Assembly: GCA_034520885.1 (NCBI GenBank)
Contig: JAXHNE010000005.1
Location: forward strand, 13,748 to 77,747
DNA from: Candidatus Saccharimonadota bacterium
Lineage (GTDB): Bacteria > Patescibacteriota > Saccharimonadia > Saccharimonadales > JAXHNE01
DNA: 64,000 bases
Direction: 5' to 3'
Shown: positions 6,945 through 23,749 of the stretch, piece by piece
Numbering within the stretch: the stretch's first letter is position 1
Layout of the letters: every line of letters begins with the position of its first letter
Translations under genes and position numbers: made by a program
The notes under the pieces: model-generated
What the model saw: the letters and a program-made list of their open reading frames with translations, nothing else
Database searches by the model: none
Told to the model about the DNA's origin: nothing

Positions 6945-8039
6945 ATGAAGTTGCAAGTTACCCAGGAAAATTTCGCCAAGGCGCTCGCCAGTGTGGCACG
7001 AACAGCAAGCTCTAAAAGCACCCTGCCCATTCTTTCCAACGTACTACTAAAAACCGCCGGGAATCGTTTACGCGTAGCGGCTACTAATTTAGATATCGGC
7101 ATTACGCATAACATTGGTTCCAAGATTAGCCAAGAAGGATCAATTACCGTTCCCGCCCGGCTTACGCAGGATTTCGTGAGTAGTCTCCCGGGCGAAGTGA
7201 TCGATCTGGAGCTGGAAGAAAACAAGCTGCACATTTCCACCGAAAAATACCAATCCACGATTAATGGTGTCGGCGCCGAGGATTTCCCGGTAATGCCGGC
7301 GATCAGCAACGGGTCTTCAATAAAAATTGACGCTCTTACCCTGAAAGAAGCGCTTTCGCAGGTGATCGTGGCGGCCAGTAACGACGAAGCCCGCCCGGTG
7401 CTTACCGGAATATTTATGCACGCGCACGAAGGAAATCTGTATTTCGTGGCCACGGACAGTTACCGCCTAGCGGAACGAAAAGTGATGCCGCTCAAACAAG
7501 ACGTTCGTTTACTGGTGCCTTCCAACGCCATGCAAGACTTACTGCGGGTGATTCCCGACGACACCGAAACCGTGGAAATTTTTTACGATGACCAGCAAGT
7601 AAGTTTCGTGGCCGGTGACGTGGAACTGGTGACACGCATGATCGACGGCGAATACCCCAACTACCGCAACCTTATCCCCGCCAAGTTCGAACACACCGCG
7701 ACCGTGGAGCGTTCCGAGTTCATTAATATCACTAAAGTATCCAGTTTGTTCGCCCGGGAAAGTGCCGGGAGCGTGACGTTGACGACGGACGAAAAAGCCA
7801 AGGAGTTGAGTATTACCTCGGTTGCCTCGCAGGTGGGCGACAACACCGCGGCGGCCAGCGCCAAAATTTACGGCGAGGGCGCGGCGATCACCCTTAATTC
7901 CCGCTACCTACTGGACGCGTTGAACGTGTTCCATGGCGCGGAAACCACCCTGTCGTTTAACAGTAAATTGGACGCCGCCCAGCTTTCCGACCCCAAAAAC
8001 AAGGACTATACTCATATTGTAATGCCGCTGAAGTCCTAG
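6945..8039 (+). CDS. dnaN: DNA polymerase III beta sliding clamp
   Basis: 364 aa with GGAGG upstream. Typical DnaN sequence (MKLQVTQENFAKAL...; ...YTHIVMPLKS) and dnaA-dnaN-recF synteny. Confidence 0.95.
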   Translation: MKLQVTQENFAKALASVARTASSKSTLPILSNVLLKTAGNRLRVAATNLDIGITHNIGSKISQEGSITVPARLTQDFVSSLPGEVIDLELEENKLHISTEKYQSTINGVGAEDFPVMPAISNGSSIKIDALTLKEALSQVIVAASNDEARPVLTGIFMHAHEGNLYFVATDSYRLAERKVMPLKQDVRLLVPSNAMQDLLRVIPDDTETVEIFYDDQQVSFVAGDVELVTRMIDGEYPNYRNLIPAKFEHTATVERSEFINITKVSSLFARESAGSVTLTTDEKAKELSITSVASQVGDNTAAASAKIYGEGAAITLNSRYLLDALNVFHGAETTLSFNSKLDAAQLSDPKNKDYTHIVMPLKS

Positions 8040-8473
8040 ACTTCAGCAAGTTGAAAGTGCAAAGCTTAAAGACTAAAGTTTTAGTATGAAGATAAATTCG
8101 TTCGAAGATATATTGGCTTGGAAAAAAGCCAAAGACCTTACGGTGGCGGTGTATAAAACCACCAAAAGCAACAAAGACAATGGCTTCAACAGCCAACTAC
8201 AAAGAGCCGCGGTGTCGATAATGAATAATATTGCTGAGGGGTTTGAGAGACAAAGCAACAAAGAGTTTAAAAAGTTTTTATATATAGCGAAGGGTTCTTG
8301 TGGTGAAGTGAGGTCAATGTTGCGGCTCGGCCAAAGCTTAGAGACGATAAACGAAGATTCCGGCAAGATTTTAATTGACCAGTCAATCGAGATTTCCAAA
8401 CTATTGTCAGGATTAATAAAGAAACTATGAAAACTTTCTACTTTATAAACTTTAAGAACTTTAAACTAAACGC
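8040..8473 (+). mobile_element. Putative heptamer-armed cassette 1 carrying a four-helix-bundle gene
   Basis: The left arm (8040-8085) is built of aagNNNN heptamers: aagttga aagtgca aagctta aagacta aagtttt. The right arm (8431-8473) is built of the complementary NNNNctt words: aaacttt ctacttt ...aactt taagaactt. The cassette begins 1 nt after the dnaN stop and ends 1 nt before the recF ATG. Confidence 0.55.
8086..8430 (+). CDS. Four-helix-bundle protein (23S rRNA intervening-sequence protein / Avd-like family)
   Basis: 114 aa. Family motif QLQRAAVSIMNNIAEGFERQSNKEFKKFLYIAKGSCGEVRSML. Three further paralogs lie in this window. Confidence 0.85.
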   Translation: MKINSFEDILAWKKAKDLTVAVYKTTKSNKDNGFNSQLQRAAVSIMNNIAEGFERQSNKEFKKFLYIAKGSCGEVRSMLRLGQSLETINEDSGKILIDQSIEISKLLSGLIKKL

Positions 8474-9526
8474 ATGATTTCAACATTGAGCCTCAAGCAA
8501 TTCAGGTCTTATCATGACGCTTCATTTGAGTTTGAGCCCGGGGTCAACATCATCGTCGGGCCGAATGCCAGCGGGAAGACGAATTTACTGGAGGCGATTT
8601 TGGTGTTAGCCAACGGGAGGTCGTATCGCGCCAAAGACCGGGAGTTACTGCGAACCGGCCAAGAATGGGCACGTTTGGACGCGCTCGCGGATAAAACGCC
8701 GCGCACGCTTAAACTGCAAACCAAAGCCGATAGCGCGCGGGTGGAAAAGGTTTTGGAGGTGGACGGCGTAGCCAAAAAACGCCTTACACTCCAGGACACG
8801 GTACCGGTGGTTTTGTTCGAACCCACCGACTTGCAACTCTTGACTGGTTCCCCCGCCCGGCGGCGAAGCTTTTTGGATACGCTCCTGAGCCGCAGCGAGC
8901 CGGATTTCGCCCGGCAACTACGGATTTACGAACGCAGCCTCGCGCAGCGCAATACGCTGCTTAAAACCGGTCATATGAGCAAGGACGAGCTGTTCGTGTG
9001 GAACGTGCGGCTTAGTGAATCCGGCGGTAAAATTATTGCGTCGCGCGCGGAGCTAATCAAGCGAATGAACACGGAGATAAACGGCCATTATAAAGACGTC
9101 GCGCACGAGGACAAACACATCACCGTGGCTTACCAAACCGACGTGAGCGCGCATCACGGGACGCAGTTAATGGAGTTGCTGGAAAAAAACATAAAACTGG
9201 ACGAAAAACGGGGGTTTACCAGCGTGGGACCGCACCGAGATGACATGTTGGTGGAGTTCGAAGGGCGGCCAGTGACCGAAACCGCTTCCCGCGGGGAGGT
9301 GCGCACCCTGGTGCTGGGGTTCAAAATGCTGGAACTTTCCATTATTGAAGCGTCACGCGGGCAAAAACCGCTCTTGCTACTGGACGACGTTTTTAGCGAA
9401 CTGGACGGCTCCCGCCGCAAAGCGCTAACGGATTTTTTGAAAGATCACCAAACCTTCATCACCACCACCGACGCCGACGTCGTCGTAGACCACTTCATGA
9501 AAAAAACCAACGTCATCGCGCTTTAG
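8474..9526 (+). CDS. recF: DNA replication and repair protein RecF
   Basis: Walker A GPNASGKTNLLEAI, an SMC-like signature, and Walker B LLLLDDVFSELD. Confidence 0.95.
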   Translation: MISTLSLKQFRSYHDASFEFEPGVNIIVGPNASGKTNLLEAILVLANGRSYRAKDRELLRTGQEWARLDALADKTPRTLKLQTKADSARVEKVLEVDGVAKKRLTLQDTVPVVLFEPTDLQLLTGSPARRRSFLDTLLSRSEPDFARQLRIYERSLAQRNTLLKTGHMSKDELFVWNVRLSESGGKIIASRAELIKRMNTEINGHYKDVAHEDKHITVAYQTDVSAHHGTQLMELLEKNIKLDEKRGFTSVGPHRDDMLVEFEGRPVTETASRGEVRTLVLGFKMLELSIIEASRGQKPLLLLDDVFSELDGSRRKALTDFLKDHQTFITTTDADVVVDHFMKKTNVIAL

Positions 9527-11059
9527 CTAGAGTCCGGTAATTACCCGATATCCTTCTTGTCTTAAAGAGCTATCCTTAATTAGTTGCTCCAAGTTGGATT
9601 TCACCCGGGAGATCTCATCTTGGCTATAACCCACTGTCTGTATATCTTCCTGGTATGTAGGCTCTCCTAATTCGGGGGCAATGTGTATGGTTTCGTTTTG
9701 TATTGAAACGTTTTTTACTATGGGGTTTTTTTCAAGCTCAAGAAATCGTTGACTGATGTTCATAGTATCTTGTGTTTCTTCGTCCAGAAGTAAGGTGTAC
9801 CTACTTTTAGTAGATAGAAAACAGGGATAAATTTTAGAGTCAAACGACCGGATTCCACACAGTGTGCCCTCACCCGGAGCACTATAGAGCACGGGGCCAC
9901 CCGTTTCTCGGGGATTAAATTTGATCACGGCGCTACTCGTTGATATATACAGCCTATCTTCTATGGTCGTGAAGCCGATACCTTCCGGAATCAGACTTGT
10001 TTTTTGGAGACCGTTATCCTTTTCATATACACCAAGTCCTTCATCGTGAATAATACAAATATAGTTGTTGCCACAAAAATCAGCGCCGCGGACTTCATCG
10101 AAAGATAGCTCATGTTGCCCACTCTCCGATTTTAAAACTACGGTTGAACCCTGCTCTTCTAGTTGGTCGGCATGTGCTTCAACGGCCTCGGCCCTCTCTC
10201 CGGAACCAATACTATGACCCCCACCGTATATAAACATAAACTCCTCGCCGTTGGAGCGAATGGCGTTAAGTGGTTTGTCGTCTTTTTGGTCAGCCGCTTC
10301 TGCTTGTGATGCGGTTAATGTATTGAGATCGGTAACCTTATAGTAGATTGCGTATTCGGTGTCATATGCAAGAAACCCATTTTTTAAATCGACAACTCGT
10401 AGATTTAAGTCGGTCGGGAGGTCTCCTACTATGCGATCCGCCGACACTTCGCCACTATCCGCTAGCGCGAAGAGCCTATGACGACCCGTCTCAAGTAGCT
10501 TAACCAGTAGGTAACTATCTCCCCCTTCTTCGATGTACCCTTCTACGTAACCATCTTGTGAAACGTCTATATTCTTAGCATAACTTGGGTTTGTGCCGCT
10601 TGCGGGAGTATGGAAAACGACTTCACTGAGTAAAGAACCGCCACAAAGTGACGAGAAAAACGCAAAAGGCTCACCCGTGCCATACACACACGGGTGAGGA
10701 TTTATTATCGCAAAACTGTGGTCGCGTTGCTTTATTAGTTCTCCGCCCATGTTTGTACTTTGAAAAAAACCGGGCACGTTGACCCTGGCAAAATAGCGAC
10801 CATCTTTCGAGTCCACAGTAGCCGTGTAATTGCCGCTCTTCAGCGAAATAGTCTCTTCGCTTGAGTTTAGCGGATAGGTTTCCGTCATGTTTTCGTCGTC
10901 GACAAGGGTTAACGTGCCACTACCAGATAAGCTCTCCATAGATATCACGAGTCGTCCACGAGTACTTACCCAAAACAGCAATAGAATAAAACTGGTTACA
11001 GCGAGGGCGACGATTGAGAGTCTGATTAGTTTTCTTTTTTGCACGGCTCTATCCTCCAT
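9527..11059 (-). CDS. Hypothetical N-terminally anchored extracytoplasmic protein (last gene of the T4SS-like operon)
   Basis: 510-aa ORF with a single N-terminal TM segment (LIRLSIVALAVTSFILLLFWV). Its start overlaps the stop of the upstream hydrolase gene. No family recognised. Confidence 0.6.
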   Translation of the reverse strand: MEDRAVQKRKLIRLSIVALAVTSFILLLFWVSTRGRLVISMESLSGSGTLTLVDDENMTETYPLNSSEETISLKSGNYTATVDSKDGRYFARVNVPGFFQSTNMGGELIKQRDHSFAIINPHPCVYGTGEPFAFFSSLCGGSLLSEVVFHTPASGTNPSYAKNIDVSQDGYVEGYIEEGGDSYLLVKLLETGRHRLFALADSGEVSADRIVGDLPTDLNLRVVDLKNGFLAYDTEYAIYYKVTDLNTLTASQAEAADQKDDKPLNAIRSNGEEFMFIYGGGHSIGSGERAEAVEAHADQLEEQGSTVVLKSESGQHELSFDEVRGADFCGNNYICIIHDEGLGVYEKDNGLQKTSLIPEGIGFTTIEDRLYISTSSAVIKFNPRETGGPVLYSAPGEGTLCGIRSFDSKIYPCFLSTKSRYTLLLDEETQDTMNISQRFLELEKNPIVKNVSIQNETIHIAPELGEPTYQEDIQTVGYSQDEISRVKSNLEQLIKDSSLRQEGYRVITGL

Positions 11060-12197
11060 TAATCGACCAGTGCCACGGTTCAGAAGGCAGGTTTTTTAAG
11101 CTGGTGTTGTCGCGTAAAAGTATAAAGCATGGATGGCTTCTACTGCTAATTGTGCTGCCATTACACGTAAAGTCAACAGCACTACCCCGTTCATGATTCG
11201 ATCTACCAGGGATTGCCGTAGCAATCCTACAGCTACCAGGAGGGGCGGAATACACGTCAGGACAACCGTTCTTGACGCGCAACTCTTCTTGGCGCTGTAC
11301 GGATCTCCAACCCCAACCACTCATGTTGAGTCCTTCGTTGTTCGCCAGGTTCACAACCCTCTCAACCTCTTCGGCGATACACGGGTGGACACGTATGCCG
11401 ACTGCCGAAACTGTTTGAGATTCCTCTACGGGTTCAGCCGGGCAGCCATTCTCATCTAACGCAACCGGGCCACCACCCGATTCTCCCGAACAAGTGGATA
11501 CCGAAACGTTTGAAACGCCTTCGACAGCATTAGTCCCGGATCCGAATTCCTGCAGCCAGGCGAGCGCTTGTGAGTGTCTAACCGGGCGGGTTCTTTCTAT
11601 GTGGGCAGGATTTTCATATTCCTCAAGAAAAATATCAGTCGCCTCAATATAGTCCTCCGTAGCCTTAATTGGTTCAAGAGTCGAAGACTTGTAGTCATCA
11701 CTTGTAAGTTCAGTCCACAAGTAGTCAAGTTGCACACCGAGGGGTTCGGTGGGTGGAACACCTCGTTCGGCATACAATTCCCGCAAACCTTGTTTGCGAG
11801 GAGGATGTGTCCACTGAACCAACCCGTAACCTGGCTGCCCTTTGCTGTTTTGATCCGGTGGTACCGTATCAGATCTGTGGGGCGGGTCGCTAAAAGCAAA
11901 CTCAACGACACGAGGATCCCAGGTGCCCGCTGACTCACTTTCGATATTACCCATAATACCCGCGACCTGAGCGGGGGTAAGCCCCTTTGATATAAGGAAA
12001 TTCCAAACCTTTTCCGGATTCTCCGAGCCGGTAAGGATGGTGGCTCCTTCACTGCAAGTACGCGAGTCCGGATCGTAGAAAGGAGTATATAGGTTTTCCC
12101 TGTCCGTGTCGGTGAGTGCGTAGGCCATCGAAGATATAAAAATTTGCCCCAAAAAAGCGAATAAAATAAATAAACAAAAAATACTGCGCCTATTCAT
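11049..12197 (-). CDS. Bifunctional cell-wall hydrolase (lysozyme-like domain + M15/VanY-type peptidase), functionally VirB1/CwlT-like
   Basis: The start is set at ATG 12197 (MNRRSIFCLFILFAFLGQIFISSMAYA, a signal peptide). It overlaps the upstream stop by 8 nt. GIMGNIESESAG is the phage-tail-lysozyme-type motif. The C-terminal PGRSNHERGSAVDF matches the SxHxxGxAxD zinc site of M15 peptidases. Confidence 0.8.
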   Translation of the reverse strand: MNRRSIFCLFILFAFLGQIFISSMAYALTDTDRENLYTPFYDPDSRTCSEGATILTGSENPEKVWNFLISKGLTPAQVAGIMGNIESESAGTWDPRVVEFAFSDPPHRSDTVPPDQNSKGQPGYGLVQWTHPPRKQGLRELYAERGVPPTEPLGVQLDYLWTELTSDDYKSSTLEPIKATEDYIEATDIFLEEYENPAHIERTRPVRHSQALAWLQEFGSGTNAVEGVSNVSVSTCSGESGGGPVALDENGCPAEPVEESQTVSAVGIRVHPCIAEEVERVVNLANNEGLNMSGWGWRSVQRQEELRVKNGCPDVYSAPPGSCRIATAIPGRSNHERGSAVDFTCNGSTISSRSHPCFILLRDNTSLKNLPSEPWHWSINGG

Positions 12198-14763
12198 TGG
12201 TAAAGTACGCTCCTGCTGCTTCGACCGCCGCTTCCTCCAGGAGGCAAGGGTTGGCAATCCTTTTTTCTTCCAATCCAGTGTAGGGGTTTTCATTTCCTTC
12301 GCCGGACTCTTCCCATCGTTCTTTGTACTCTTCGCAGCTTTCTTCGGTTAATTGATCGGGGTTTCGAGTAAAGGCGGGATCATTCTGGCTATAGCCGTAC
12401 CGTGTAATTCCAAAGGCGTTTATTGCCAGTTGCTGTTCGGCCAGTGAATCCGCCCCCACACTGCCGGTAAAAGCATTCCTTAAGTTCGCCTTGAAACCAT
12501 TCATTATTCCGAAGATCGCGCCAGTGCCCTGAGTTTGACCAATGGGTATAGAACCAACCAGGCCGCTGGCGAGTGATTGAGGGTGCTCAAGGCTTGCGAG
12601 GCGCGTAAGTAAGTCTTCTTTACGGAAGTTTTGACGTTGTTGCTCCAACTGTTCCTTCGTTATTTTAGCGTACTCTTCGTCGCTAATAACCGGGGCGCCC
12701 AGACCGTAAGGTTGGCCGGATTCGTCATATCCGCCCTCGGCGAATTCCGCCGATGTCACATCAGCGCCCGCTATGACTCCGTCCAACTTGACACGCGCCG
12801 GGCTGTCTTCTTGTACGGGGAGCGGAAAGACGTAACTAAATACCCATGTAAGAAAGGTGTCGAACAGGTTTTTAGCCCACTCTTCGAATGTATCGTAACC
12901 ACGAATATTGGATACCAAACCAAAGACGACACTTCCTATTGAGCTCAGGACGAAGTCTACAGCACCAACTATCCTTTCAAGGAAAAAGCGATAATCTGCT
13001 GGGCAAGGAGCGTTAATTTCTACAACAATTTCAACGCCTGGTGGACTTGTTACGCAGTCATCCAACGTATTTACTGCGCTGGCCACTCTATCGACCACCG
13101 GATTGTCCCGAAGCTTCTCTACCTCGAATCTATCCCCCGGGCCTCTAACAATCTTCTTTTCATCGCACACGTGATCACCTCTGTCTATCGGTTCTCCGTC
13201 CTGACAAGTGTATTCCTCGTCGGATTGTGCATGCACCGTTGAACTTCCGAGGAAGGCGACGTCATTGTTTTGTTGATTGGAATAGGCGCGCCACAATTTA
13301 CTTTTTTCAGCACCATCAAGGTCACTCAAAGCCGCTCCAAGTTCATTCAAGTCTACTTCGTGAGATTTTGTCTCGTCATTCAATGAACGAAAACCAGTAT
13401 AAATTTCTCTGTATTGTTCAGCAGCCAAAGCCGAATGGAACCGACTAAGTGCATCGTCATCTATAGCCCGGTCAAAATCATCAGCCAAAAGAGCCATGGA
13501 CGCAACAAAGTATAATTGTCCTGCCACAGGAATTTTAGTCGCTGCAAGCCGAGCCGAACTATCCTTCATGACCTTTGCCAACAATTTTTCGAGGACATAA
13601 CTGCTCACAGTTCCCCTGCTTCTACCAAGAGGTTTTCCATTCTCGTCTGTTCCACGAAAATGCTTTATAATGTCATTTCTGTCTTCCTCGGAAAGGTTGT
13701 TTCTGTCAAGGTCTCTTTCCCGCAAGTCGTTGGGGCCACAAGAGTTTGCGCGGCTTCCGATGTTCCTGTCGATAGCGCAGGTAAATATGAGGCCATACTT
13801 ACTAGAAAAAGGATATACAAACCTGCTTACGAATCTGTACTTATATCTCGTTCGTGCGCTTGCACTCCGGTCTTCCAGGTTATCTCTCGTGTCGCAAGCC
13901 CAAAAACACCAAAGCCTGACGTCGTGTTTTCGCTGGAGGTATTTACGGATTGAGCGGCGCTCCATGACCTGATAGATCTTTGTTTCTTGCCGTAAAAAAC
14001 GGTTCATTTCACGGCCGAAATCCCTCCTCCCCCTGTCGGTTACGATATTCCTGAATTTTCCGTCAACGTCCCTGCTTAAGTCGATTTCACTCCTGAGTTT
14101 GGTATCGTATAGGCGATGTCGAGTAATGCCGGTATCACTGTCTTGTTCCGTTCTGATTTCTATACCGTAGTTATCAAATAACTTTTGCTCGACTCGTGCG
14201 TCGCGCCATTGATTGAACAAGTTACCAGCGATACCTGCCCCCCTATAGGTATATCTGCAGTCGAGAGACACTGTCTGAGTACAGGTATTGAGCTGAGTCA
14301 TATAGGACACCATATATCTTTCCATGAGATGCCCCGCCCGGGCTTCAACGGCGTTGGCGGCAACAGCAAACGCTTTTTGGTTGATATTCTGCATAAAGTG
14401 TTCGAGCTTGAGTGCTGGGAGGGTCAATACCGATATGAGCACACCCCCGCCCACGAAAAGGCCGATAACTCCTCCTCCGGCTTTTCTGCGGCGGGTCCAG
14501 AACTTTTTCTTATTGGCACCACTTCCGTCATCTTTAAATAAGCTTTGCTCTTCTTCGCCTCCAGTGTCTTTACGAGGTTCAGCACCTTCTTCCTTTTCAG
14601 CGATTTCGTTAGGCGAGAGTGATCTTTGGCCGATATCCTCCGCCGCTCCGCTGTGGGCTTCGCGGTCCATGGCCTCTTCTTCATCGGGAGAAATACCGGT
14701 AATACCCCTTAATTCATCATTCGAGGTCCCCTTTTTTTGTCGTTGATCGTCGTAGACTGGCAT
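12190..14763 (-). CDS. Large T4SS-associated membrane protein, function unknown
   Basis: 857 aa. Acidic cytoplasmic N-terminus, a TM segment (GGGVIGLFVGGGVLISVLTLPAL) and a large exported region with a second hydrophobic patch. Lies between the virB4-like gene and the hydrolase. No family recognised. Confidence 0.6.
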   Translation of the reverse strand: MPVYDDQRQKKGTSNDELRGITGISPDEEEAMDREAHSGAAEDIGQRSLSPNEIAEKEEGAEPRKDTGGEEEQSLFKDDGSGANKKKFWTRRRKAGGGVIGLFVGGGVLISVLTLPALKLEHFMQNINQKAFAVAANAVEARAGHLMERYMVSYMTQLNTCTQTVSLDCRYTYRGAGIAGNLFNQWRDARVEQKLFDNYGIEIRTEQDSDTGITRHRLYDTKLRSEIDLSRDVDGKFRNIVTDRGRRDFGREMNRFLRQETKIYQVMERRSIRKYLQRKHDVRLWCFWACDTRDNLEDRSASARTRYKYRFVSRFVYPFSSKYGLIFTCAIDRNIGSRANSCGPNDLRERDLDRNNLSEEDRNDIIKHFRGTDENGKPLGRSRGTVSSYVLEKLLAKVMKDSSARLAATKIPVAGQLYFVASMALLADDFDRAIDDDALSRFHSALAAEQYREIYTGFRSLNDETKSHEVDLNELGAALSDLDGAEKSKLWRAYSNQQNNDVAFLGSSTVHAQSDEEYTCQDGEPIDRGDHVCDEKKIVRGPGDRFEVEKLRDNPVVDRVASAVNTLDDCVTSPPGVEIVVEINAPCPADYRFFLERIVGAVDFVLSSIGSVVFGLVSNIRGYDTFEEWAKNLFDTFLTWVFSYVFPLPVQEDSPARVKLDGVIAGADVTSAEFAEGGYDESGQPYGLGAPVISDEEYAKITKEQLEQQRQNFRKEDLLTRLASLEHPQSLASGLVGSIPIGQTQGTGAIFGIMNGFKANLRNAFTGSVGADSLAEQQLAINAFGITRYGYSQNDPAFTRNPDQLTEESCEEYKERWEESGEGNENPYTGLEEKRIANPCLLEEAAVEAAGAYFTNE

Positions 14764-15155
14764 TATTGAGTCCTGATTTTTGAGTTTTGTGTCTTGAGTG
14801 ATTTAAGAAGCCCGCTCAGTATCTTGGATATTTCATCGGTATTCTCCACCAGTCTATAATAGTCCTCAGTCTTGAAGTACTCAAGACTTCTTCCGAGTTC
14901 AAGCATAGATTCAACTTCGGCAGCAGAACCTTTGGCAATCAAGAGAAAGTTGGAAAAAGCCTTTGGGCTTCTTCTGGAGTGGCCTTCGGCTATATTGTTC
15001 ATAATCGAGACGGACGCTCTTTGTATCTGATCACGGAAGGAAAAGTCTTTGTTATTTTGCAGTAGTCCATATATTTCAACGCGTAAATGACGAGCTTTTT
15101 GCCAAGCCTTGATGTCTCGAAACGACTGCCCGGTGTTTTTGTTTACTTTGCTCAT
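14763..15155 (-). CDS. Four-helix-bundle protein (23S rRNA IVS protein / Avd-like family)
   Basis: 130 aa. Motif QIQRASVSIMNNIAEGHSRRSPKAFSNFLLIAKGSAAEVESML. Its stop shares 1 nt with the ATG of the downstream 857-aa gene (TAATG). Confidence 0.85.
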   Translation of the reverse strand: MSKVNKNTGQSFRDIKAWQKARHLRVEIYGLLQNNKDFSFRDQIQRASVSIMNNIAEGHSRRSPKAFSNFLLIAKGSAAEVESMLELGRSLEYFKTEDYYRLVENTDEISKILSGLLKSLKTQNSKIRTQ

Positions 15156-15196
15156 GGCTTTTGCTCAATACTCATCACTCACTACTCACAACTCAT
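14763..15196 (-). mobile_element. Putative heptamer-armed cassette 2 carrying a four-helix-bundle gene
   Basis: The right arm (15156-15196) reads gctcaat actcatc actcact actcaca actcatt (actcNNN). The left arm (14766-14810) reads ttgagtc ctgattt ttgagtt ttgtgtc ttgagtg (NNNgagt, the complement). The arm cores atcactca...aactca are shared. The left arm supplies the last codons of the gene (KSLKTQNSKIRTQ). Confidence 0.55.
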
Positions 15197-17122
15197 TTAT
15201 GAGCCGGGGCTTAGGCGGTTGTTCAGGTCTATTGTACCTTGTTCGCCGGATATTTCGCCCTGTTGTTCTATTTGGCTTACTTGTTCCGGATTGGTGGTGA
15301 TCAAATTGGTTTCCGTGGGGCTGGCGGTAACCTGAATATGTACGTGATTTTGCCCGGCAAAGAATAACCCTTGACCCACCGGGAATTGGCTGAGGCGTTT
15401 CTTTTCCTCGCTAGTGAGTTTGAATACATGAGAAAGTGTGTCCACGGCGGTGGAGGATTGTTTGAGCAGGATTTGCATGGAGGCGTTGGCCACGATTGCC
15501 CGCCCCATACGGCTACCCATAAAGTCTTCCACGTCTTGTGAAATGGTGGTGATACCCAGGTTGTATTTACGGGCCCGTTTGGCCAGGCTGAACATGAAAT
15601 TGGCGGAATCTTCGTACTTCATGAGCTGCCAGGCTTCGTCGACCACCAGCATACGACGCTTTTGGTCGGCTTTGGTTTTGTTCCAGATAAAGTTAAGTAC
15701 GATATACATGGCCACCGGGCGCAGTTCGTCTTCCAGGTCACGGATATTAAATACCACCATCGGGTTGTTGATGTCGATGTTAGACGGTTGCGAGAAGATA
15801 CCCGCGAACGTACCGGTGGTGTATTTGCGAAGCCGTTGCGCCAATTGCGGCCCATTTCCGCCCATATGTAACAGCGTGTCGTAAAGATCGTTAATGGTCG
15901 GCGGCGGCGAAGTGTGCGTGAGCGGATCGTTGGTGATTCCGGCTTTGGCATAGGTTTCGATCAGTGCGGCGTCCAGATCGGCCTCTTCAGCGGGGCTGAG
16001 CGCCGGAGCAATGCTGCCCTGGGCGCCTTCTTGTTGAGCCATTTGGGCCTGGGCGCCGCCCATCATCAGCCGTAAGAGCCCGTGCAAAGTAATCAGGTTG
16101 CTGCGCAGGGCGTTATCGGCCTCCTCTTCGTCGGCAACTTTCGGCAAATCAAAAGGGTTTATCCTGGTCGGTGAATTCAAACTTAAGCGAACGTAGGCTC
16201 CGCCGACCGCTTCGGCCATGCGCTGGTATTCGTTTTCCGGGTCGATAATGAACACCTCGGTGCCGAACATCATGCTACGCAAGGCTTCCAGCTTAACGGT
16301 AAAACTTTTACCGGCGCCGGACTTGGCAAACACCACGGAATTGCCGTTTTCCAAGGAAAAGCGATCAAAAATCACCAACCCGGAGTTGTGCATGTTAATG
16401 CCGTAAAGAATGCCGTTATCTTGCGTAAGATCGGCCGAAGTGAACGGGAAGCTGGTGCTTAAAGCGCCGGTGTTCAGGTTGCGGCGAATCTGCAGTTGAT
16501 CCGTAAATTGCGGCACGGTGCTGTTTAAGCCTTGCTCTTGCTGTGAAGTGGCCGGTTTGGAGTAAATTAATTGCTGGCCAAGCATGGATTCCACTTTTTG
16601 GGCGACGTATTCCAGCTCGTCTTCCGATCCCCCGTAAATCGTAAAGTACAGCCCGAAGCGGAAGAAGCGTTCTTCGCCCACCTGTAGTTTGTCGCGCATT
16701 TCCTCGGCGTCCTGGATGGCGGCCTGGGTGCCCGGATCGCGAACCCGACCCTTCTCGGCAGTGATTTGCATATCGGCCTCCAAGCGGGACACCTTTTTCT
16801 TGAGGTTATCCAGCACTACCTGGCTTTCGACTGGATAAATGTAAATTGAAAGATCAATCACTTCGTCCAGATTGACCATACTACTTAACCAACCGGTAAA
16901 AATTTGCCGCGGATACCCATACACGTAGTAGGTGCGGGCGTAGCGGGTGCCGATTTGAAAGTCCTTATTGTTAAAGACAATGGAGCTGGGGGCAATAAAG
17001 TCACGGAGCGCGCCAACACCCTTCTGGAAAGCGGCTTGGACTTCTTGCTCCTCACGGGCTTTTTGCTGCTGCGCCAGCGTCACCGGATCGGTCTGGTCGT
17101 TCTTTTTACCAAACAAACTCAC
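15197..17122 (-). CDS. virB4: VirB4/TrbE/ConE-family type IV secretion ATPase
   Basis: 641 aa. Walker A VFAKSGAGKSFT and Walker B MLVVDEAWQLM. The N-terminal domain is typical of VirB4 (GTRYARTYYVYGYPRQIFTGWL). GTG start. Confidence 0.9.
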   Translation of the reverse strand: MSLFGKKNDQTDPVTLAQQQKAREEQEVQAAFQKGVGALRDFIAPSSIVFNNKDFQIGTRYARTYYVYGYPRQIFTGWLSSMVNLDEVIDLSIYIYPVESQVVLDNLKKKVSRLEADMQITAEKGRVRDPGTQAAIQDAEEMRDKLQVGEERFFRFGLYFTIYGGSEDELEYVAQKVESMLGQQLIYSKPATSQQEQGLNSTVPQFTDQLQIRRNLNTGALSTSFPFTSADLTQDNGILYGINMHNSGLVIFDRFSLENGNSVVFAKSGAGKSFTVKLEALRSMMFGTEVFIIDPENEYQRMAEAVGGAYVRLSLNSPTRINPFDLPKVADEEEADNALRSNLITLHGLLRLMMGGAQAQMAQQEGAQGSIAPALSPAEEADLDAALIETYAKAGITNDPLTHTSPPPTINDLYDTLLHMGGNGPQLAQRLRKYTTGTFAGIFSQPSNIDINNPMVVFNIRDLEDELRPVAMYIVLNFIWNKTKADQKRRMLVVDEAWQLMKYEDSANFMFSLAKRARKYNLGITTISQDVEDFMGSRMGRAIVANASMQILLKQSSTAVDTLSHVFKLTSEEKKRLSQFPVGQGLFFAGQNHVHIQVTASPTETNLITTNPEQVSQIEQQGEISGEQGTIDLNNRLSPGS

Positions 17123-17144
17123 AAGACAACCCCCCGGGACTCTA

Positions 17145-17234
17145 AAGTCTGAAATCTGAAATGTGAAACCAGAAACAAATCTGAAATCTGAAATGTGAAA
17201 CCAGAAACAAATCTGAAATCTGAAATGTGAAACT
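17145..17234. repeat. 31-bp tandem repeat (about 2.8 copies) built of heptamers
   Basis: aaatctgaaatctgaaatgtgaaaccagaaac is repeated head-to-tail at 17146, 17177 and 17208 (the last copy is partial). It sits between the virB4 start and the stop of the four-helix-bundle gene. Confidence 0.9.
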
Positions 17235-17636
17235 TCATGATGAATTCCTCACAATCGCTCCGAGAATATTCATTAATTCGGTTGCTTCCTTCTGCAGTCT
17301 CGACTGTTCTTTACGATTTAATTCATTTGCTGTAATAAGTTCTAACCAGTAAATTGTTTCTCTCGCTTCTTTTTTTGCGATCTTAACCCGCATAATAAAA
17401 TCTTTCTTGCTTAAGGATTGATTTGCCTCCAAGTAGTTCGCACCAACGGAACCGGAAGAGCGAACGAGTTGCTTGCCGTCCTCTCTGTTACCGGCATTTT
17501 TAGGAAGTGCCCCCACGAATAAACGAACGTCTTTTGCGAACTTTTTAGTTCTATCTTCAAGATCAAAACGTTTCTGATTTCGTGCTTCGTGCTTGTTTCT
17601 GATTTCGTGCTTCGTGCTTCGTGCTTCAGTTTTCAT
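17235..17636 (-). CDS. Four-helix-bundle protein (23S rRNA IVS protein / Avd-like family), subtype B
   Basis: The start is set at ATG 17636, in an ATGA overlap with the upstream stop. Motifs RFDLEDRTKKFAKDV and QLVRSSGSVGANYLEANQSLSKKDFIMRVKIAKKEARET. The track ORF's 60-aa N-terminal extension overlaps the upstream gene and is rejected. Confidence 0.8.
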   Translation of the reverse strand: MKTEARSTKHEIRNKHEARNQKRFDLEDRTKKFAKDVRLFVGALPKNAGNREDGKQLVRSSGSVGANYLEANQSLSKKDFIMRVKIAKKEARETIYWLELITANELNRKEQSRLQKEATELMNILGAIVRNSS

Positions 17637-18547
17637 GAATATATATCCTTTTCCAGCTGTGGCTGGGCGGCTTGGCCTTCGCCCTTGGTGACAACTGGCG
17701 CTGTCATGGTGTTGAAGTCTTTCAGTTGCTGGCGGGTCGCGGTGTCCGGATTGTAGGTGTCGTAGTACAGTTCGATCAGCTCTTGCGTGTCCAGCGGGAT
17801 TCCCTGGATGCCGCATTGCTGCAACCCGTTTAACACCGCTTGTACGCGGTTACGCAGTTCGTCCTTGGCTTTGTTGAGCGTGGCTTCGTTGATGGTGACG
17901 TGCACGTCCTTGGGCTTGAAAATATGGGTCAGCCCCTGGAAGAATCCCCTACTACTTTCCACGGCCTGCTTTAGATCACCTTCCGGAAAGTACGGAATTA
18001 CCACGTAAAAATTCTTGTCCATAATGTTGGTTTGCAGGGAAAGGTTGTCGATGTAGGTAATGTAATCCTCCATTAACAGTGATAGCAGCATATTGTCATG
18101 CTCGCCACGGATTTTATCCAGCTTTTGGATATAGGGGGTCATGTCCACTTTGCGTGATCGCAGGAAAATTTGTATCGGAAAATATAAGGAGTTTAAAAAT
18201 CCCTGGTAACTGTATTCCACCGCATCCCGTTCTTCCGGGCTCATGAGATCGAAGTTGATGGAGCGGACGGCCACTACGGAGCGAAAGGAGCCGTCGTTCA
18301 TAATCACGATGCCATCGCGCACTTCGGCAATCTGTAAGGAGTTCTGGGTGCTATTAGGGTTGCCGGCCGGAGGTTGTTCCTTAGATTTTTGAGGTGTTGG
18401 TTGCTGGCCTTGAGATTGTTGGGGTGGCGGCTGTTGCCCCGGCGCTTGTTGTTGGCCGGGGTTTTGGGGCGCGTAGGCCTGCCCCGGCTGCGATTGAGCG
18501 GGAGGCTGCTGGGGATTGTTTTGTTGGCCGGGGTTTTGGGGATTCAT
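17633..18547 (-). CDS. T4SS-associated protein with a Gln/Pro-rich N-terminus, function unknown
   Basis: 304 aa. The first ~70 aa are low complexity (NPQNPGQQNNPQQPPAQ...). The segment DGSFRSVVAVRSINFDLMSPEERDAVEYSYQGFLNSLYFPIQIF is reminiscent of the N-terminal region of VirB4-type proteins, but this resemblance is weak and judged only by eye. Confidence 0.55.
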   Translation of the reverse strand: MNPQNPGQQNNPQQPPAQSQPGQAYAPQNPGQQQAPGQQPPPQQSQGQQPTPQKSKEQPPAGNPNSTQNSLQIAEVRDGIVIMNDGSFRSVVAVRSINFDLMSPEERDAVEYSYQGFLNSLYFPIQIFLRSRKVDMTPYIQKLDKIRGEHDNMLLSLLMEDYITYIDNLSLQTNIMDKNFYVVIPYFPEGDLKQAVESSRGFFQGLTHIFKPKDVHVTINEATLNKAKDELRNRVQAVLNGLQQCGIQGIPLDTQELIELYYDTYNPDTATRQQLKDFNTMTAPVVTKGEGQAAQPQLEKDIYS

Positions 18548-18802
18548 GTAAAACTAAACTCCACGTTTCAAATATCAATTTCCAGGGAATGGCTAAACAT
18601 TAACGTTTTCCCTGTCAATTTTACTTGTGATCGACCGTAATATCAAAACTATCCGATGACTTTCATTCATAAAAACCTCCGGATCGTAAGGAACTGATCG
18701 CACATTGGAGTTTGTGATTTGAGATTTAAGTTCTTCACGCCACCCTAAAAAGGTTATTCTTATATGCGGTTAATTATAGAGGAATTTTGTGCTTTGCACA
18801 AA

Positions 18803-19287
18803 ATAGCTGAAAGCTAAATGCTAAGAGCTCAAAGCTGCGCAATTTCCAATTTCCAATTTCTAATTTTCATTCAATTCTCAACCGCCATTTTTTAAACTAG
18901 TGGTAATTTTTTGGAAGATTAATACCAACTCATGAACTTCTTGCCATAATGATCGTAAATCAGCTTTTTTCGAAGGCGTTGCGGTACTAAGCATACGGAG
19001 CCAATGCTGTGTTTCTTGAGCCTCTTTTTTACAGATATGAATTTTATTACGGAAATCTTTTTTAGAGCTGGCCCCGTTCGCTTCCATATAGTTTGCTCCA
19101 ATGCTTGTCGAGGAACGAACCAACTGATTAATCAAAGGCTTGTTTATATTATTTTGTTTAATAACTTTACAGAGCTTAATTACATCTTCCCCAAACCTTG
19201 ATGTTCTTTCCTCTAAATCAAATTTATTGTCTTTTTGAGCCATTGAAGATTGATTGTAAATTGTAAAATTGAAAACTAAAAATTAAC
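18803..19287 (-). mobile_element. Putative heptamer-armed cassette 4 carrying a four-helix-bundle gene
   Basis: The left flank begins with agctgaa agctaaa tgctaag agctcaa agctgcg, then caatttc caatttc caatttc taatttt cattcaa. The right flank (19244-19287) reads ttgaaga ttgattg taaattg taaaatt gaaaact, whose reverse complement gives the caattt-type words. Confidence 0.55.
18878..19243 (-). CDS. Four-helix-bundle protein (23S rRNA IVS protein / Avd-like family), subtype B
   Basis: 121 aa. Motifs KFDLEERTSRFGEDV and QLVRSSTSIGANYMEANGASSKKDFRNKIHICKKEAQET. Confidence 0.85.
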   Translation of the reverse strand: MAQKDNKFDLEERTSRFGEDVIKLCKVIKQNNINKPLINQLVRSSTSIGANYMEANGASSKKDFRNKIHICKKEAQETQHWLRMLSTATPSKKADLRSLWQEVHELVLIFQKITTSLKNGG

Positions 19288-19345
19288 TTCTTGAATGATT
19301 CGATAGGCATACTGACAGCATAACGTATCAGCATTCAGCTGGTGG

Positions 19346-20464
19346 TCAGTGCAAACTGACCACGACTTCGTCGGGGTGGTCGTCGTCCTTGTTTTTGTTG
19401 GCTTGGCGGGCAATGGTTTCCACGTTCAGGTCGTTGTTATTGGCCAGTTGGGTGACTGACGGATCGGGTTTTTTCGGTTCCGGCTTGGCGGGTTCTTTTT
19501 GGTTCGTTGGTTGTTGATGAGGGGTGGATGGTGCCGCGTCTTTTTGCTTTTTTTGTTCGGAAAGCGGGAGCACGGTTTTTTGGTGCGTGGTGTAGGTGGA
19601 CTTTTTAGCTTGGGAGTCGTGAATTTTATTAAGTAAAGCTTCTTCATCGGCCTTGGAGAGGTTTTGCTCGCCCGGCTCCGGTTTGTCGTCAGTGTGCGGC
19701 GCAACGGTGGTGCCCTGCCCGGTTGCCATACCGGGTGGCGTTTTGCTAGGGTCGTTTTGGTGCATGAACCAAAAATCTTGCGGCGTTTGTTGGTTTTGCT
19801 GATTTTCTTGCGGGGCGGCTTGTGGGTGCGACATTCGTTGTTTTATCTGGTCTTTATGCGTGGCTTCGGATTGGGTAATCATTTTATCGATGTTTTTGGC
19901 GGTGGGATTGTTGTTTTCATCGAGCACGTCTTCTTTTACCCCAACATCGGTGGCAATTTGGGTGCCTACGGTTTCCGTTCCGGCGACCAACCGGTCGGAA
20001 TTGTCCACTTGTTGGCCGCCAAATGGCGAACCGCCCAATTGTTTTACCGCCCAGCCGCGGCTATCCACGGTTTGCGCCAGGGCGGAAAGCCGGCTGCGGA
20101 CTTGGGTTTGATCCAGTTCATCGGTAAGGTGCCGTTCCACTTTTTTCGGAACCGTAATAGTAACCAGTTCTTTTATGCCGGCTTGATCCCAAATGCGCTT
20201 ACGCGGCTTAAAGAAAAAGCGGATTTTTGCCAGCAACCATGTTTCCGTGGGTTGCGCTTTGCTCCACGGGAACCCGAGTACCCCGAAAAACACGGCCGGC
20301 GGTAGCAAAAATATCGCAAAAAATGCCGCCCCTTGAGTGAAAGTAAAAAAAATGAGGTACAAACACACGGCGGTAATTGCAAAGTAAATAAATTGCTTGA
20401 GCGTGAGCGGCCCGATGAGTTTGTCCTCGGCCTCGATATCTTGGATCACTTTGTGCTGCGCCAT
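19346..20464 (-). CDS. PrgI/VirB3-like T4SS membrane protein with a long disordered C-terminal extension
   Basis: The N-terminus VIQDIEAEDKLIGPLTLKQFIYFAITAVCLYLIFF followed by two TM helices is the PrgI-family pattern. The C-terminal ~200 aa are Q/P/K-rich. Confidence 0.7.
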   Translation of the reverse strand: MAQHKVIQDIEAEDKLIGPLTLKQFIYFAITAVCLYLIFFTFTQGAAFFAIFLLPPAVFFGVLGFPWSKAQPTETWLLAKIRFFFKPRKRIWDQAGIKELVTITVPKKVERHLTDELDQTQVRSRLSALAQTVDSRGWAVKQLGGSPFGGQQVDNSDRLVAGTETVGTQIATDVGVKEDVLDENNNPTAKNIDKMITQSEATHKDQIKQRMSHPQAAPQENQQNQQTPQDFWFMHQNDPSKTPPGMATGQGTTVAPHTDDKPEPGEQNLSKADEEALLNKIHDSQAKKSTYTTHQKTVLPLSEQKKQKDAAPSTPHQQPTNQKEPAKPEPKKPDPSVTQLANNNDLNVETIARQANKNKDDDHPDEVVVSLH

Positions 20465-20475
20465 CTATTTAAACC

Positions 20476-22644
20476 CTAACCTGTTCCAAATGGATTTTCT
20501 GGAGGTTCTTCTTCGCTTCGAAGCATTTCTTCTCTTTCTGCTTGTGTCACCCCCCCCCTGCTTAGCTTTCTCTCGACAGCATCCCTAACTGCGTTTTCAT
20601 CCGCTGGTTCAGCACCTGGCAGCAGCCCATTTTCTTGTTGTAATTTTACTCTCTCTGAATCAGTTAAGATACTTCGAATTTCTGCCTTGATGGCTGGATT
20701 GGTATATGCGTGGTAAGCCTGTTGTAGGGTTGACTCGATATCTTTAACTGCGTCTGCATTAACAGGTTTGCCATCAATATCGCCTCCACTGAGCGCCTTG
20801 GTGAAGGTTTTGTGGTATTTTTTGAGCATAGGTTCTTTCGCTCCTCCAATATCCTGAACGCTCATGCCTTGAATACGCTTAAGTTCTTGTGTTGCAGTAC
20901 CTGCACGGAAATTGCCATCTTCATCAACCCCAACACTATAGCCGGGTTTGGTGAGCGCTCCAGCTCGCGCTCCAGCAAGCTCTGCCTGGGTTTTGTACAT
21001 TGAACCAACACCACTCAAACCTTCCTGATCCAGGAGGTTTCCGACTTTGGCTACGTCTTCATTATCTGCAAAACCTTGCGACGCAAGAGCGAGTCCTGCG
21101 GCGCCCGTCACACTAGCACGTCCGTACTCGTCATTTCGAGAGACCGTAGTGAGATATGCACCGTTTTCCTCTAATTGTTTAGCCCCAAGTGCCATATTGT
21201 CATCGACTGAACCATCTGGTTTTCTGTAAGCTTTCATGTCCCGGACGACTCTATCCATGTCAGATGCAGAACCATTCCATCCCCTGATAAGTTCATTCCC
21301 GTCGTCGTCGAAGACACCTGTGCTGAGTGCTTTTAGTGCTCTGTCGTTCATTCCGACCTTACTGATGCTTTCGCCAAGTTTTTGCGTATCCTCCCACTTC
21401 GACTGAGCCAGTTCATTCAAAAGAGCTTTTCCACCCCTACTGCCAGAATAAATTTTGGCAGCACTCTTTGGATCCATTATGGCGCTAGCCCCAGAATTCA
21501 ATTTGTCAACCGCCCATCTACCCCGGGATCCTTTGGCGAACCTGTTTGGGTTTATTGCCCGGCTGGAAGACCAGCGTTCTCGTTTTTCGGCTCGTTTTTT
21601 GCGTTGGTGGTCGAAGATTCCGCGTGATTTTTCGTTGAGTGCTCCGGTGACCGTGGCGAACATCCCGCCAGCAACCTTAAAAGTGAATGGAATAAAGGCG
21701 TACGGAATTAAATAGGCAATAAAACCAAAGATATAATCCGCTATCGCGGCTTGGTCAGTAACTTCGCTACCGACGAATAGGTAAGCAAAAACCCTTCCCA
21801 TGGCAATCAAACCCATAATAAGCGGATACATAAATAAAAGCTTACTGAACAAACTCCACCAGTTGTTCCATAACTTGTCGTTACCGGGGAATATCCAAGC
21901 GAGAATCGCCAAGGGCGCAATTAGTAGTAGCATTACAATAAAAAGTTGCCTTATTATGAGAATCAGGAAGGCTATCGCAGCAACCGTTAGAAGCGTAGTC
22001 CCAAAAAAAGCGATAACAATGATCCCGCCAAGACCTAACAAGACCCAGTCGAGACCAGGTATACCAATCGAGAAAACATTCCGAAAACTTAATGCTTCAA
22101 AGCCACCAAATGGGCTCGTGATAAGACCGCCAACACCCCTGCCGGCCGCCTCTACGACATCAATGAAAAACGTTAGTAGTGGGTAAGATACCGCAATAAA
22201 TATGACCGCTATCACAAGACGCGGCAAGGCCTTTTTAACCGTATAGGCGCTTATGAAATCAAAACCGAGTGCGGTAGAGATGACCATGACGAGCATAATC
22301 GGCACCAAGATACTGAAAGCGATGCTTCGTATGTTACTGGCAGCATCGGCGAGGCGATCTTCTTCCGCGAAGTCGTTGTCAACTTCGAGCAAGTTTGCGA
22401 TTTGTCCGTCTAGCCACCTTACACTGGCATCGATAGCTGTCATGGCTGGGCACATGAACCATCCAAAGTCGCCGCCATGAGCTTCACAGTTGCCGCCGTC
22501 ATCCTCGTTCTCGGTTTCATTTTCCTGAGAAGCAGAATTGGAAGGTTGGGTACTGTCTGACTGGGCAAATGTAGCAGGAGCCGGCAAGAATAACCCGGTA
22601 GATACTATTCCCACAAAAAGAAGGGTCAAAAATTTTTTCGCCAT
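20476..22644 (-). CDS. VirB6/TrbL/ConG-like polytopic T4SS channel protein
   Basis: 722 aa. Signal peptide (LFLPAPATFAQS), about 6-8 TM helices in the central third, and a large soluble C-terminal domain. Position and topology are typical of VirB6-like proteins in Gram-positive-type systems. Confidence 0.7.
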   Translation of the reverse strand: MAKKFLTLLFVGIVSTGLFLPAPATFAQSDSTQPSNSASQENETENEDDGGNCEAHGGDFGWFMCPAMTAIDASVRWLDGQIANLLEVDNDFAEEDRLADAASNIRSIAFSILVPIMLVMVISTALGFDFISAYTVKKALPRLVIAVIFIAVSYPLLTFFIDVVEAAGRGVGGLITSPFGGFEALSFRNVFSIGIPGLDWVLLGLGGIIVIAFFGTTLLTVAAIAFLILIIRQLFIVMLLLIAPLAILAWIFPGNDKLWNNWWSLFSKLLFMYPLIMGLIAMGRVFAYLFVGSEVTDQAAIADYIFGFIAYLIPYAFIPFTFKVAGGMFATVTGALNEKSRGIFDHQRKKRAEKRERWSSSRAINPNRFAKGSRGRWAVDKLNSGASAIMDPKSAAKIYSGSRGGKALLNELAQSKWEDTQKLGESISKVGMNDRALKALSTGVFDDDGNELIRGWNGSASDMDRVVRDMKAYRKPDGSVDDNMALGAKQLEENGAYLTTVSRNDEYGRASVTGAAGLALASQGFADNEDVAKVGNLLDQEGLSGVGSMYKTQAELAGARAGALTKPGYSVGVDEDGNFRAGTATQELKRIQGMSVQDIGGAKEPMLKKYHKTFTKALSGGDIDGKPVNADAVKDIESTLQQAYHAYTNPAIKAEIRSILTDSERVKLQQENGLLPGAEPADENAVRDAVERKLSRGGVTQAEREEMLRSEEEPPENPFGTG

Positions 22645-22695
22645 TACAAGAATATTAACATAACGGGTATGCGTTCACACCAAATTTATAAAGTG

Positions 22696-23652: not shown

Positions 23653-23710
23653 TATGACCTCTCAATTGGTAATTATAGTATACCATAATTAGCATACCTT
23701 GTGCTACAAG

Positions 23711-23739: not shown

Positions 23740-23749
23740 ATTTCCAACC

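Follow-up and report, generated by a model that had tools for sequence, protein, structure and literature searches.

Four-helix-bundle genes bracketed by inverted arrays of subfamily-specific words: candidate intervening-sequence-type cassettes in protein-coding operons of a Saccharibacteria contig

Why does a Candidatus Saccharibacteria genome carry, next to housekeeping genes and inside a type IV secretion system (T4SS) operon, four genes of the small four-helix-bundle family that includes the open reading frames (ORFs) of 23S rRNA intervening sequences (IVSs), and why is each framed by short tandem repeats? The genes lie within positions 8040-19287 of a 64,000-nt stretch (hereafter the window) of JAXHNE010000005.1, a 145-kb contig of a metagenome-assembled genome (MAG). 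The architecture, a gene between two inverted arrays of a short word, recurs across phyla; the word follows the protein subfamily, the units are polymorphic insertions that mostly share the orientation of their host operons, and they decay. On balance we favor the reading that each unit is an IVS-type insertional cassette residing in operons, with ends made of word arrays that are probably read by the cassette's own protein.

The four genes are c1 (8086-8430, + strand; 114 aa), between dnaN and recF; c2 (14763-15155, - strand; 130 aa), just downstream of VirB4 at the VirB4/p857 junction; c3 (17235-17636, - strand; 133 aa), between p304 and VirB4; and c4 (18878-19243, - strand; 121 aa), between p372 and p304, where p304 is a TraC-like and p372 a PrgI-like gene. 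All of them matched PF05635 at 57.7-114.7 bits against a curated cut-off of 33.8 (E 3e-33, 6e-33, 1.6e-15, and 5e-17 for c1 to c4) and TIGR02436 at 80-112 bits against a cut-off of 24 (c1: 112 bits; c3: 80 bits). Together with the dnaN/recF and type IV secretion gene flanks, this bears out an earlier note, made from the sequence alone, which had assigned the ORFs to the four-helix-bundle/23S-IVS protein family and placed them in protein-coding operons. Translation of c3 probably begins at the ATG of 17636 rather than at that of 17816; the former overlaps the stop codon of the upstream p304 (ATGA). The proteins fall into two sub-groups (c1/c2: 54% identity; c3/c4: ~40%), and there is no fifth four-helix-bundle paralog in the window. 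The nearest solved structures were 2GSC (XCC0516) for c1 and 2RLD for c4, each entry with five chains, a likeness suggesting that the proteins may be homopentameric four-helix bundles. A search of Rfam over the window returned four tRNAs as the sole matches and no rRNA, and at the gathering threshold no Rfam family fell on the arms, either in the window or in 13 loci carrying relatives of c1; likewise, rRNA motifs were present in none of the fetched loci, so none of the genes sits in helix 25 or 45 of a 23S rRNA gene. PADLOC gave no match, nor did scans of viral contigs with c2 and with a c3/c4 alignment or a search of a phage collection with c1.

Avd, the accessory protein of diversity-generating retroelements (DGRs), is a pentameric, nucleic-acid-associated four-helix bundle (see also PMC10053308). 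The common Pfam family, and a weak match of c2 to the PHROG entry 'Avd protein of DGR' (E 7e-5), would be expected if the genes encoded Avd proteins and the repeats were DGR parts. We rejected this reading because the neighboring genes (encoding DnaN, RecF, VirB4, and TraC-like, PrgI-like, and lysozyme-like proteins) include no reverse transcriptase. Moreover, c1, c3, and c4 did not match the Avd PHROG, and the repeats in the arms are tandem words of 7-9 nt, unlike the ~100-nt template/variable pair of a DGR, so that we regard the DGR explanation as extremely improbable.

We then examined the arms. The 5' array of c1 (8050-8082, + strand), located between the dnaN stop (8039) and the c1 ATG, has AAAG(T) cores at 8054, 8061, 8068, and 8075, in exact 7-nt steps, and its 3' array (8431-8466, + strand) has the reverse-complementary CTTT at 8434, 8441, 8450, and 8459, in steps of 7, 9, and 9 nt (period 9 by Tandem Repeats Finder, TRF). 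Between the VirB4 stop and the c2 ATG, the 5' array of c2 (15163-15196, - strand) consists of five (A/G)CTCA on the + strand, that is, TGAG(T/C) in sense, in 7-nt steps; its 3' array (14763-14805, - strand) shows TTGAGT on the + strand (ACTCAA in sense) once per 14 nt, and is translated as the last ~14 codons of c2. For c3, the 3' array (17148-17233, - strand) comprises 2.7 copies of a 32-nt unit detected by TRF and made of TCTGAAA/TGTGAAA/CAGAAAC heptamers (+ strand), and the 5' array (17570-17633, - strand) is translated as the first ~22 codons of the gene. The 3' array of c4 (18840-18877, - strand) has three CAATTTC and variants on the + strand (GAAATTG in sense) and the 5' array (19244-19287, - strand) has (C/T)AATTT(T/A) words in sense; the two pair together up to the start and stop codons. 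In a lag scan (35-nt windows, 74% self-match threshold, shuffled sequence as control), the threshold was reached solely by lags 7, 14, and 21 and by one lag-12 array, with no tract in the shuffled sequence, and TRF detected the same tracts. The period-7 signal is thus real. The strict 7-nt period first described is not, given the 7/9/9 steps of the c1 3' arm, the 14-nt step of the c2 3' arm, and the 7-9-nt spacing in relatives of c1; and each gene is indeed bracketed by tandem arms, with the c2 3' and c3 5' arms partly coding.

Arm-versus-arm duplex energies were compared with a null of 500 dinucleotide shuffles. The arms of c2 (z -3.3; 2/500 shuffles at least as good), c3 (z -6.1; 0/500), and c4 (z -4.2; 1/500) pair beyond the control, and they also pair mutually in the minimum-free-energy fold of the whole cassette, as expected for an ORF in the loop of a stem; the c1 arms did not reach significance by energy (z -1.3; 53/500), despite the four AAAG upstream and four CTTT downstream of this gene. 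When all arms were paired with all others, the diagonal of the matrix was the strongest. The earlier observation therefore holds in the main, with corrections on the period, on the complementarity of the c1 arms, and on the arms that are translated.

To see how general the arrays are, we turned to c1-type genes in other genomes. Scanning one genome per species, we recovered 80 loci whose genes are 54-68% identical to c1, from Bacteroidota, Patescibacteria, Leptospirales, Gammaproteobacteria, Omnitrophota, Nitrospirota, and others; words were counted within 100 nt on each side of the gene in the 73 of 80 loci with enough flank. At least three AAAGT were found upstream in 53/73 loci and at least three ACTTT downstream in 46/73, with both arms in 39/73, against a background for each word of 4/1041 windows (0.4%), a clear enrichment of flanking arms beside such genes. 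The opposite polarity of the words occurred in 1 and 3 of the 73 loci, respectively, and the majority of the exceptions carry the core variants CAAGT/ACTTG. Cores are spaced by 7, 8, or 9 nt; tract coverage at lags 7-9 was 6-10% in the 75 nt next to the gene and ~0.5% at a large distance from it, while lags 4-6 and 10-13 gave essentially no tracts near c1-type genes. Median distances between array and gene are 18 nt on the ATG side and 9 nt on the stop side, and an arm mostly has 2-5 copies (maximum 23). Of 57 cassettes, 49 were co-oriented with both neighboring long ORFs and none was antisense inside an operon.

Most of these loci are MAG-derived, and complete plasmids of isolates gave a matching pattern. 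Tandem heptamer arrays were present at 11/11 inspected plasmid-borne four-helix-bundle genes, 10 of them cyanobacterial (Nostocales or Pseudanabaena) and 1 from Riemerella (hosts: Nostoc, four times; Calothrix, Anabaena, Aulosira, Pseudanabaena, and Riemerella), with inverted arrays at 10 of the 11 copies and direct arrays at 1. Each has words of its own (GGGAAAA, GGGTGTA, GGTGACA, GGGAGTA, GGGAACA, GAGTCAG, GCTAAAA, AAGGTTY), and the proteins are at most 51% identical pairwise. The suspected link between this gene family and heptamers of the type of the cyanobacterial short tandemly repeated repetitive (STRR) sequences is thus supported by arrays at 10/10 cyanobacterial plasmid copies, a small sample.

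The word follows the protein subfamily. Besides AAAGT/ACTTT in the c1-type (73 loci, several phyla), TGAG(T)/(A)CTCA recurs with c2-type genes at the c2 site and strand (L176), at another site on the opposite strand (L177), and in L175 and L105, and (C/T)AATTT/AAATT(G/A) recurs with c4-type genes of 71-75% identity, at the c4 site on the opposite strand (L162, L168) and at an unrelated site (L170), the c2-type and c4-type samples both being small. A further type (L047/L055; Ignavibacteriae and Bacteroidota) has GGATTT upstream and no complementary array within 130 nt after the stop; to judge from the protein tails rather than the DNA, its complement would lie within the C-terminal codons. Within subfamilies, synonymous divergence (pS) is saturated at 0.8-1.0 and nonsynonymous divergence (pN) is 0.11-0.30, indicating that the proteins are under purifying selection and that unconstrained flanks should have been randomized. 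The core words nevertheless persist, and word-profile similarity climbs with protein identity (Mantel r 0.63; 0/2000 permutations). The words had first been taken to be element-specific, and the arms, by extension, to be co-generated rather than inherited; instead, the words of c1 (AAAGT), c2 (TGAGT), and c4 (CAATTT) stay with their own subfamilies across genomes, sites, and phyla, so the word is either carried along with the gene or set by it. The analogy with rRNA IVSs drawn at the same time remains apt, with a conserved, subfamily-specific word in the place of element-specific, co-generated ones.

This distribution bears directly on a neutral origin, in which slippage, or fold-back template switching at junction hairpins, would make STRR-like repeats at which the genes merely land or persist, with no relation between protein and word. 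Such a process would fit the report (Mrazek 2007, as cited in PMC4679880 and PMC4692102) that in many bacteria heptamers outnumber all other long simple repeats, the symmetric Watson-Crick complementarity of the arms, which a DNA-level process would give, the in-frame heptamer tracts within tsaD, and the gene-less inserts at one junction, whose words are lineage-specific and in some cases like the last codons of the host gene (both described below). It is at odds with a core word that stays with its subfamily across phyla, sites, and orientations at saturated pS, with a more than 100-fold enrichment beside the gene over background, and with a word polarity that is fixed relative to the gene (53 vs 1). 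We consider a purely neutral origin quite improbable.

Next, we asked whether the four junctions are occupied in relatives, as presence/absence polymorphism had been proposed. For the T4SS operon, the comparison set consisted of 80 relatives from a metagenome scan with VirB4 (81-86% identity, gene order conserved), only one of which (L096) has a four-helix-bundle gene anywhere in the operon, at the c4 site, with CTAGAAA/TTTCTAG arms. The p304/VirB4 junction (c3 site) has a median length of -4 nt in 74 relatives and 510 nt in the window; the VirB4/p857 junction (c2 site) measures 22-277 nt and holds no such gene in 16 relatives, compared with 433 nt in the window; and the p372/p304 junction (c4 site) has a median of 93 nt in relatives and 798 nt in the window, without a four-helix-bundle gene in 61/62 relatives. 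The dnaN/recF junction is empty in four relatives, measures 17-20 nt in L180, L182, and L186 (DnaN 77%, 74%, and 65% identical), and is occupied by a c1-type cassette in L002 and L058 (~65%). Empty sites therefore exist at all four junctions. Other Patescibacteria have c1-type cassettes at the c3 and c4 positions, indicating that different subfamilies hit the same junctions. The c4-type and c2-type copies on the opposite strand at the p372/p304 junction (L162, L168, L177) fit either independent insertion or flipping between inverted arms.

At the occupied dnaN/recF sites we also observed a hairpin at the dnaN end: in the window (8027-8046), the last 7-10 nt and the stop codon are followed by an exact inverted copy (CTGAAGTcctagACTTCAG), and the corresponding sequences are GCTCAAATcttagATTTGAGC in L002 and CAAAAGTTAAatgaaccTTAACTTTTG in L058. 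The hairpin covaries across these three filled sites, and none of the empty ones has it. As a general signature of insertion it was discarded, being found in 5/59 c1-type loci versus 1.3% of controls.

Several sites carry what look like stages of decay. At the c2 site of L105, TGAGT/ACTCA arms surround a 55-aa ORF that corresponds to the C-terminal third of a c2-like protein, and an 88-nt TGAGT/ACTCA remnant lies at dnaN/recF in L184. At p304/VirB4, 14 relatives have gene-less heptamer inserts of 60-160 nt, mostly inverted and followed by a Shine-Dalgarno sequence. These inserts fit decayed cassettes and repeats made in place equally well, and, their words being lineage-specific, an in-situ or fold-back origin may apply to them.

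The same comparisons weigh on a second alternative, in which the arrays are cis-regulatory RNA or DNA sites of the encoded oligomer, comparable to the tandem GAG repeats read by TRAP, and the gene is a resident, autoregulated one; arrays in the groES-groEL and dnaA-dnaN spacers would then be trans targets of the paralogs, and presence/absence would reflect gene loss. Conserved, subfamily-specific words that abut start and stop codons, the word families shared by distant tracts of the window, and heptamer tracts in operon spacers that hold no four-helix-bundle gene are all what such regulation would produce, and the TAACTGA heptamers of Beggiatoaceae have been proposed as sites of a post-transcriptional regulator (PMC4679880). 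However, 79/80 relatives lack the gene in the T4SS operon, and in most of them the c3 site is a 4-nt stop/start overlap, which makes gain far more parsimonious than loss; the same junctions host different subfamilies; and c1-type genes remain 54-68% identical across phyla, implying horizontal spread. We find a resident regulatory gene unlikely, less so than a neutral origin, and note that it overlaps with our favored reading on one point, the recognition of the word by the protein.

In the insertional reading that we favor, each gene, as a rule lacking a recognizable ribosome-binding site, would be the cargo of an IVS-type cassette and stand between two inverted arrays of a 7-9-nt repeat with a subfamily-specific core word of 4-6 nt. 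The cassette would enter gene junctions inside host transcription units and be co-transcribed with them; its arrays, abutting the start and stop codons, would form a long stem, imperfectly paired, whose loop holds the ORF, the layout that is cut by RNase III in 23S rRNA IVSs. Pairing in the RNA and cleavage by RNase III are suggested here by the architecture, by the co-orientation with the host, and by the rRNA precedent. The encoded oligomeric protein would read its own arrays, either for spread and maintenance of the cassette or for control of its own expression; we infer such recognition as the most economical explanation because the core word is kept at sites that should be randomized and changes with the subfamily. 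Junction hot-spots would gain cassettes, and later internal deletion would remove the ORF, leaving gene-less heptamer hairpins.

Several results count against this scheme or parts of it. Whole-cassette folds are only modestly better than shuffles (c1 z -0.6, not significant; c2 -1.65; c3 -1.37; c4 -2.15), and an arm of a c1-type element pairs only moderately better with its own partner than with the arms of other c1-type elements (z -0.76, p 2e-4), implying that much of the complementarity is a consequence of having the same oriented word on both sides. Mismatches of the G.U type and the A.C type were about equal in the arms (82 vs 88), leaving no RNA-strand signature, and sense and antisense folding energies were alike (p 0.58 and 0.2); since neither strand-signature test gave a signal, we do not claim selection on pairing at the RNA level. 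Copy number per arm has no peak at five, leaving the idea of one repeat per subunit of a pentamer unsupported. The arrays of L053, L080, and L195 are direct rather than inverted. At p372/p304, c4-type and c2-type copies (L162, L168, L177) lie antisense to the flanking T4SS genes, so read-through transcription is not always on hand. The 14 gene-less p304/VirB4 inserts all differ in word, and some resemble the last codons of the host gene. Comparison of filled and empty sites yielded no clear target-site duplication, and no transposase, integrase, or reverse transcriptase was seen adjoining any cassette. In Coxiella, finally, the S23p protein of the 23S IVS is apparently not made in vivo (PMC4990558).

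Heptamer tracts also occur in the window outside 8040-19287. One is a complementary pair with no gene between its arms, formed by TAGAGGT-type words at 58827-58891 and ACCTCTA/AACGTCT-type words at 59092-59182, about 200 nt apart, in a stretch between convergent ORFs. No hairpin of the window is stronger (arm duplex -82.5 kcal/mol, z -8.8, 0/500 shuffles at least as good; fold z -8.9). Its interior was considered as a decayed four-helix-bundle gene and rejected, there being no coding trace in the ~200 nt. Within 8040-19287, a solo array of AGCTNAA words (18805-18839) lies beside the c4 3' arm, itself unpartnered; several of its 10-mers recur inverted (e.g., agctttcagctatt) at 48200-48254, showing that word families recur at distant loci of the genome. 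The latter tract lies in tsaD (47543-48766, - strand; TIGR03723 E 3e-107, with the match in two stretches), in which the tracts at 48200-48254 and 48422-48562 together account for two in-frame inserts, one of ~50 aa around residues 66-116 and one of ~20 aa around residues 171-190. As both leave the frame unbroken, heptamer arrays are evidently tolerated inside an essential gene. The groES-groEL spacer is filled by a tract (55594-55652) of AGCTAAA/AGCTTAA words and then three GGCTCTT, which has 10-mers in common with the c1 5' arm and with 48200-48254.

The dnaA-dnaN spacer measures 536 nt, versus about 250 nt in relatives, which hold an ~80-aa ORF there; its tracts (6413-6445, 6512-6542, and 6553-6589) comprise a TGGAAGR heptamer block present in duplicate and a tract of CTCTTTG. 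Reverse complements of the TGGAAGR words occur at 43672-43835, within a one-sided run of about 25 CCATCTT/CTATCTT/CCAACTT units (43651-43835) that has no complementary partner nearby and is followed at 43852-43891 by 3.3 copies of the 12-mer TAATACTAGTAT. Strict lag-7 tracts are ~18-fold denser at 8000-24000 of the window (5 in 16 kb) than in the relatives L082-L161 (14 tracts in 804 kb from 80 relatives); the relatives that do have such tracts include L096 and L105, carriers of a gene or remnant.

Some individual loci add detail. Direct arrays were also seen in L037 and L068, and in Brumimicrobium (L080) the words on both sides are of the AACTTGA type. Two tandem c1-type genes in a Peptostreptococcus MAG (L046, about 1995-2800) each have the same leader, with an ACTTT array between them, making head-to-tail arrays of cassettes possible. 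On the Pseudanabaena plasmid pPg_01 (L195), (GCTAAAA)14 lies upstream and (GCCAAAA)n downstream of the gene, between cas6 and cas4; both this cassette and the one on pANA02 of Anabaena sp. 90 (L190) sit between cas6 and cas4 of type I-D loci of the clustered regularly interspaced short palindromic repeats (CRISPR)-Cas system. Genes of the PF05635 family have been described inside cas operons and in rRNA insertions of the candidate phyla radiation, and cassettes between cas6 and cas4 may explain the published association with cas operons.

IVSs with an S23p ORF in 23S rRNA are reportedly the subject of Ralph and McClelland (1993), in Leptospira. In the 23S IVS of Coxiella burnetii, RNase III cleaves a terminal stem of 28 bp in vitro, the S23p start is preceded by 3-4 tandem copies of the heptamer GACAGAT, their number varying among strains, and the ORF decays; excision by RNase III without religation has been demonstrated for rRNA IVSs only (Warrier et al. 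2016, PMC4990558). The earlier statement that no link between such repeats and this gene family had been described was therefore too strong, the Coxiella IVS being one reported case. As a general rule for the PF05635 family, however, repeat arms are apparently not described in the full-text literature searched, and the heptamer repeats reported from cyanobacteria, Xanthomonas, Beggiatoaceae, and Bacteroidetes came with no associated gene family (PMC4679880, PMC4692102).

The cassettes thereby join two old questions, the function of the rRNA IVS ORF (since 1993) and the origin of the STRR heptamers (since 1990), and joining them makes each directly testable in a family that numbers thousands of genes across Patescibacteria, Bacteroidota, Cyanobacteria, and other phyla. 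If the protein reads its word, the PF05635 family would be a natural set of readers of short sequences, and the presence of such genes in cas, T4SS, and housekeeping operons would be accounted for. A bolder version, which we put forward as speculation with little confidence, is that the family consists of diversified oligomeric readers of short nucleic-acid words whose cassette ends, instead of being inherited base by base, are rebuilt or extended as tandem copies of the word that the cassette's own protein specifies, possibly through templated addition of repeats or through slippage and fold-back guided by the protein; the cyanobacterial STRR heptamers and the tracts scattered in operon spacers and inside genes would then be footprints of a new class of mobile cassette. 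In practice, there is a risk of taking the arrays for CRISPR-like repeats and the cassettes for members of the operon.

How do the cassettes compare with known systems? They share the PF05635 fold family with the Avd protein of DGRs, and differ from it in having no adjacent reverse transcriptase and a weak profile match at best. Like integron cassettes with their attC sites, and like repetitive extragenic palindromic (REP) elements and bacterial interspersed mosaic elements, they are promoter-less ORFs or hairpins placed between genes and co-oriented with the host unit; unlike integron cassettes they come without an integrase and have repeats on both sides of the ORF, whereas REP elements lack an ORF and are not built of tandem heptamers. 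Mu, Tn7, and Ac/Ds have subterminal inverted arrays of short protein-binding motifs, and derivatives in the form of miniature inverted-repeat transposable elements. The cassettes may resemble them in the oriented arrays of short words at both ends that point inward, in internal deletions that keep the ends, and in sites that are hit repeatedly, and are distinct in that they encode no transposase and that no terminal inverted repeat with a defined tip or target-site duplication was found. With the STRR sequences (Mazel 1990 and Mrazek 2007, as cited in PMC4679880 and PMC4692102) and the TAACTGA repeats (PMC4679880) they have in common degenerate tandem 7-nt units, an intergenic location, often upstream of starts, and occurrence in phyla rich in PF05635 genes; in those sources the repeats are described without a gene family or inverted pairing around an ORF, whereas the arrays of the window bracket PF05635 genes. 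The closest likeness is to the 23S rRNA IVS: a protein of the same family is encoded in the loop, inverted repeats at the termini make the stem, heptamers stand upstream (in Coxiella), the distribution is sporadic and horizontal, and the ORF decays while the ends remain; the difference is that the cassettes of the window lie in protein-coding operons and that both of their arms are arrays of the subfamily word.

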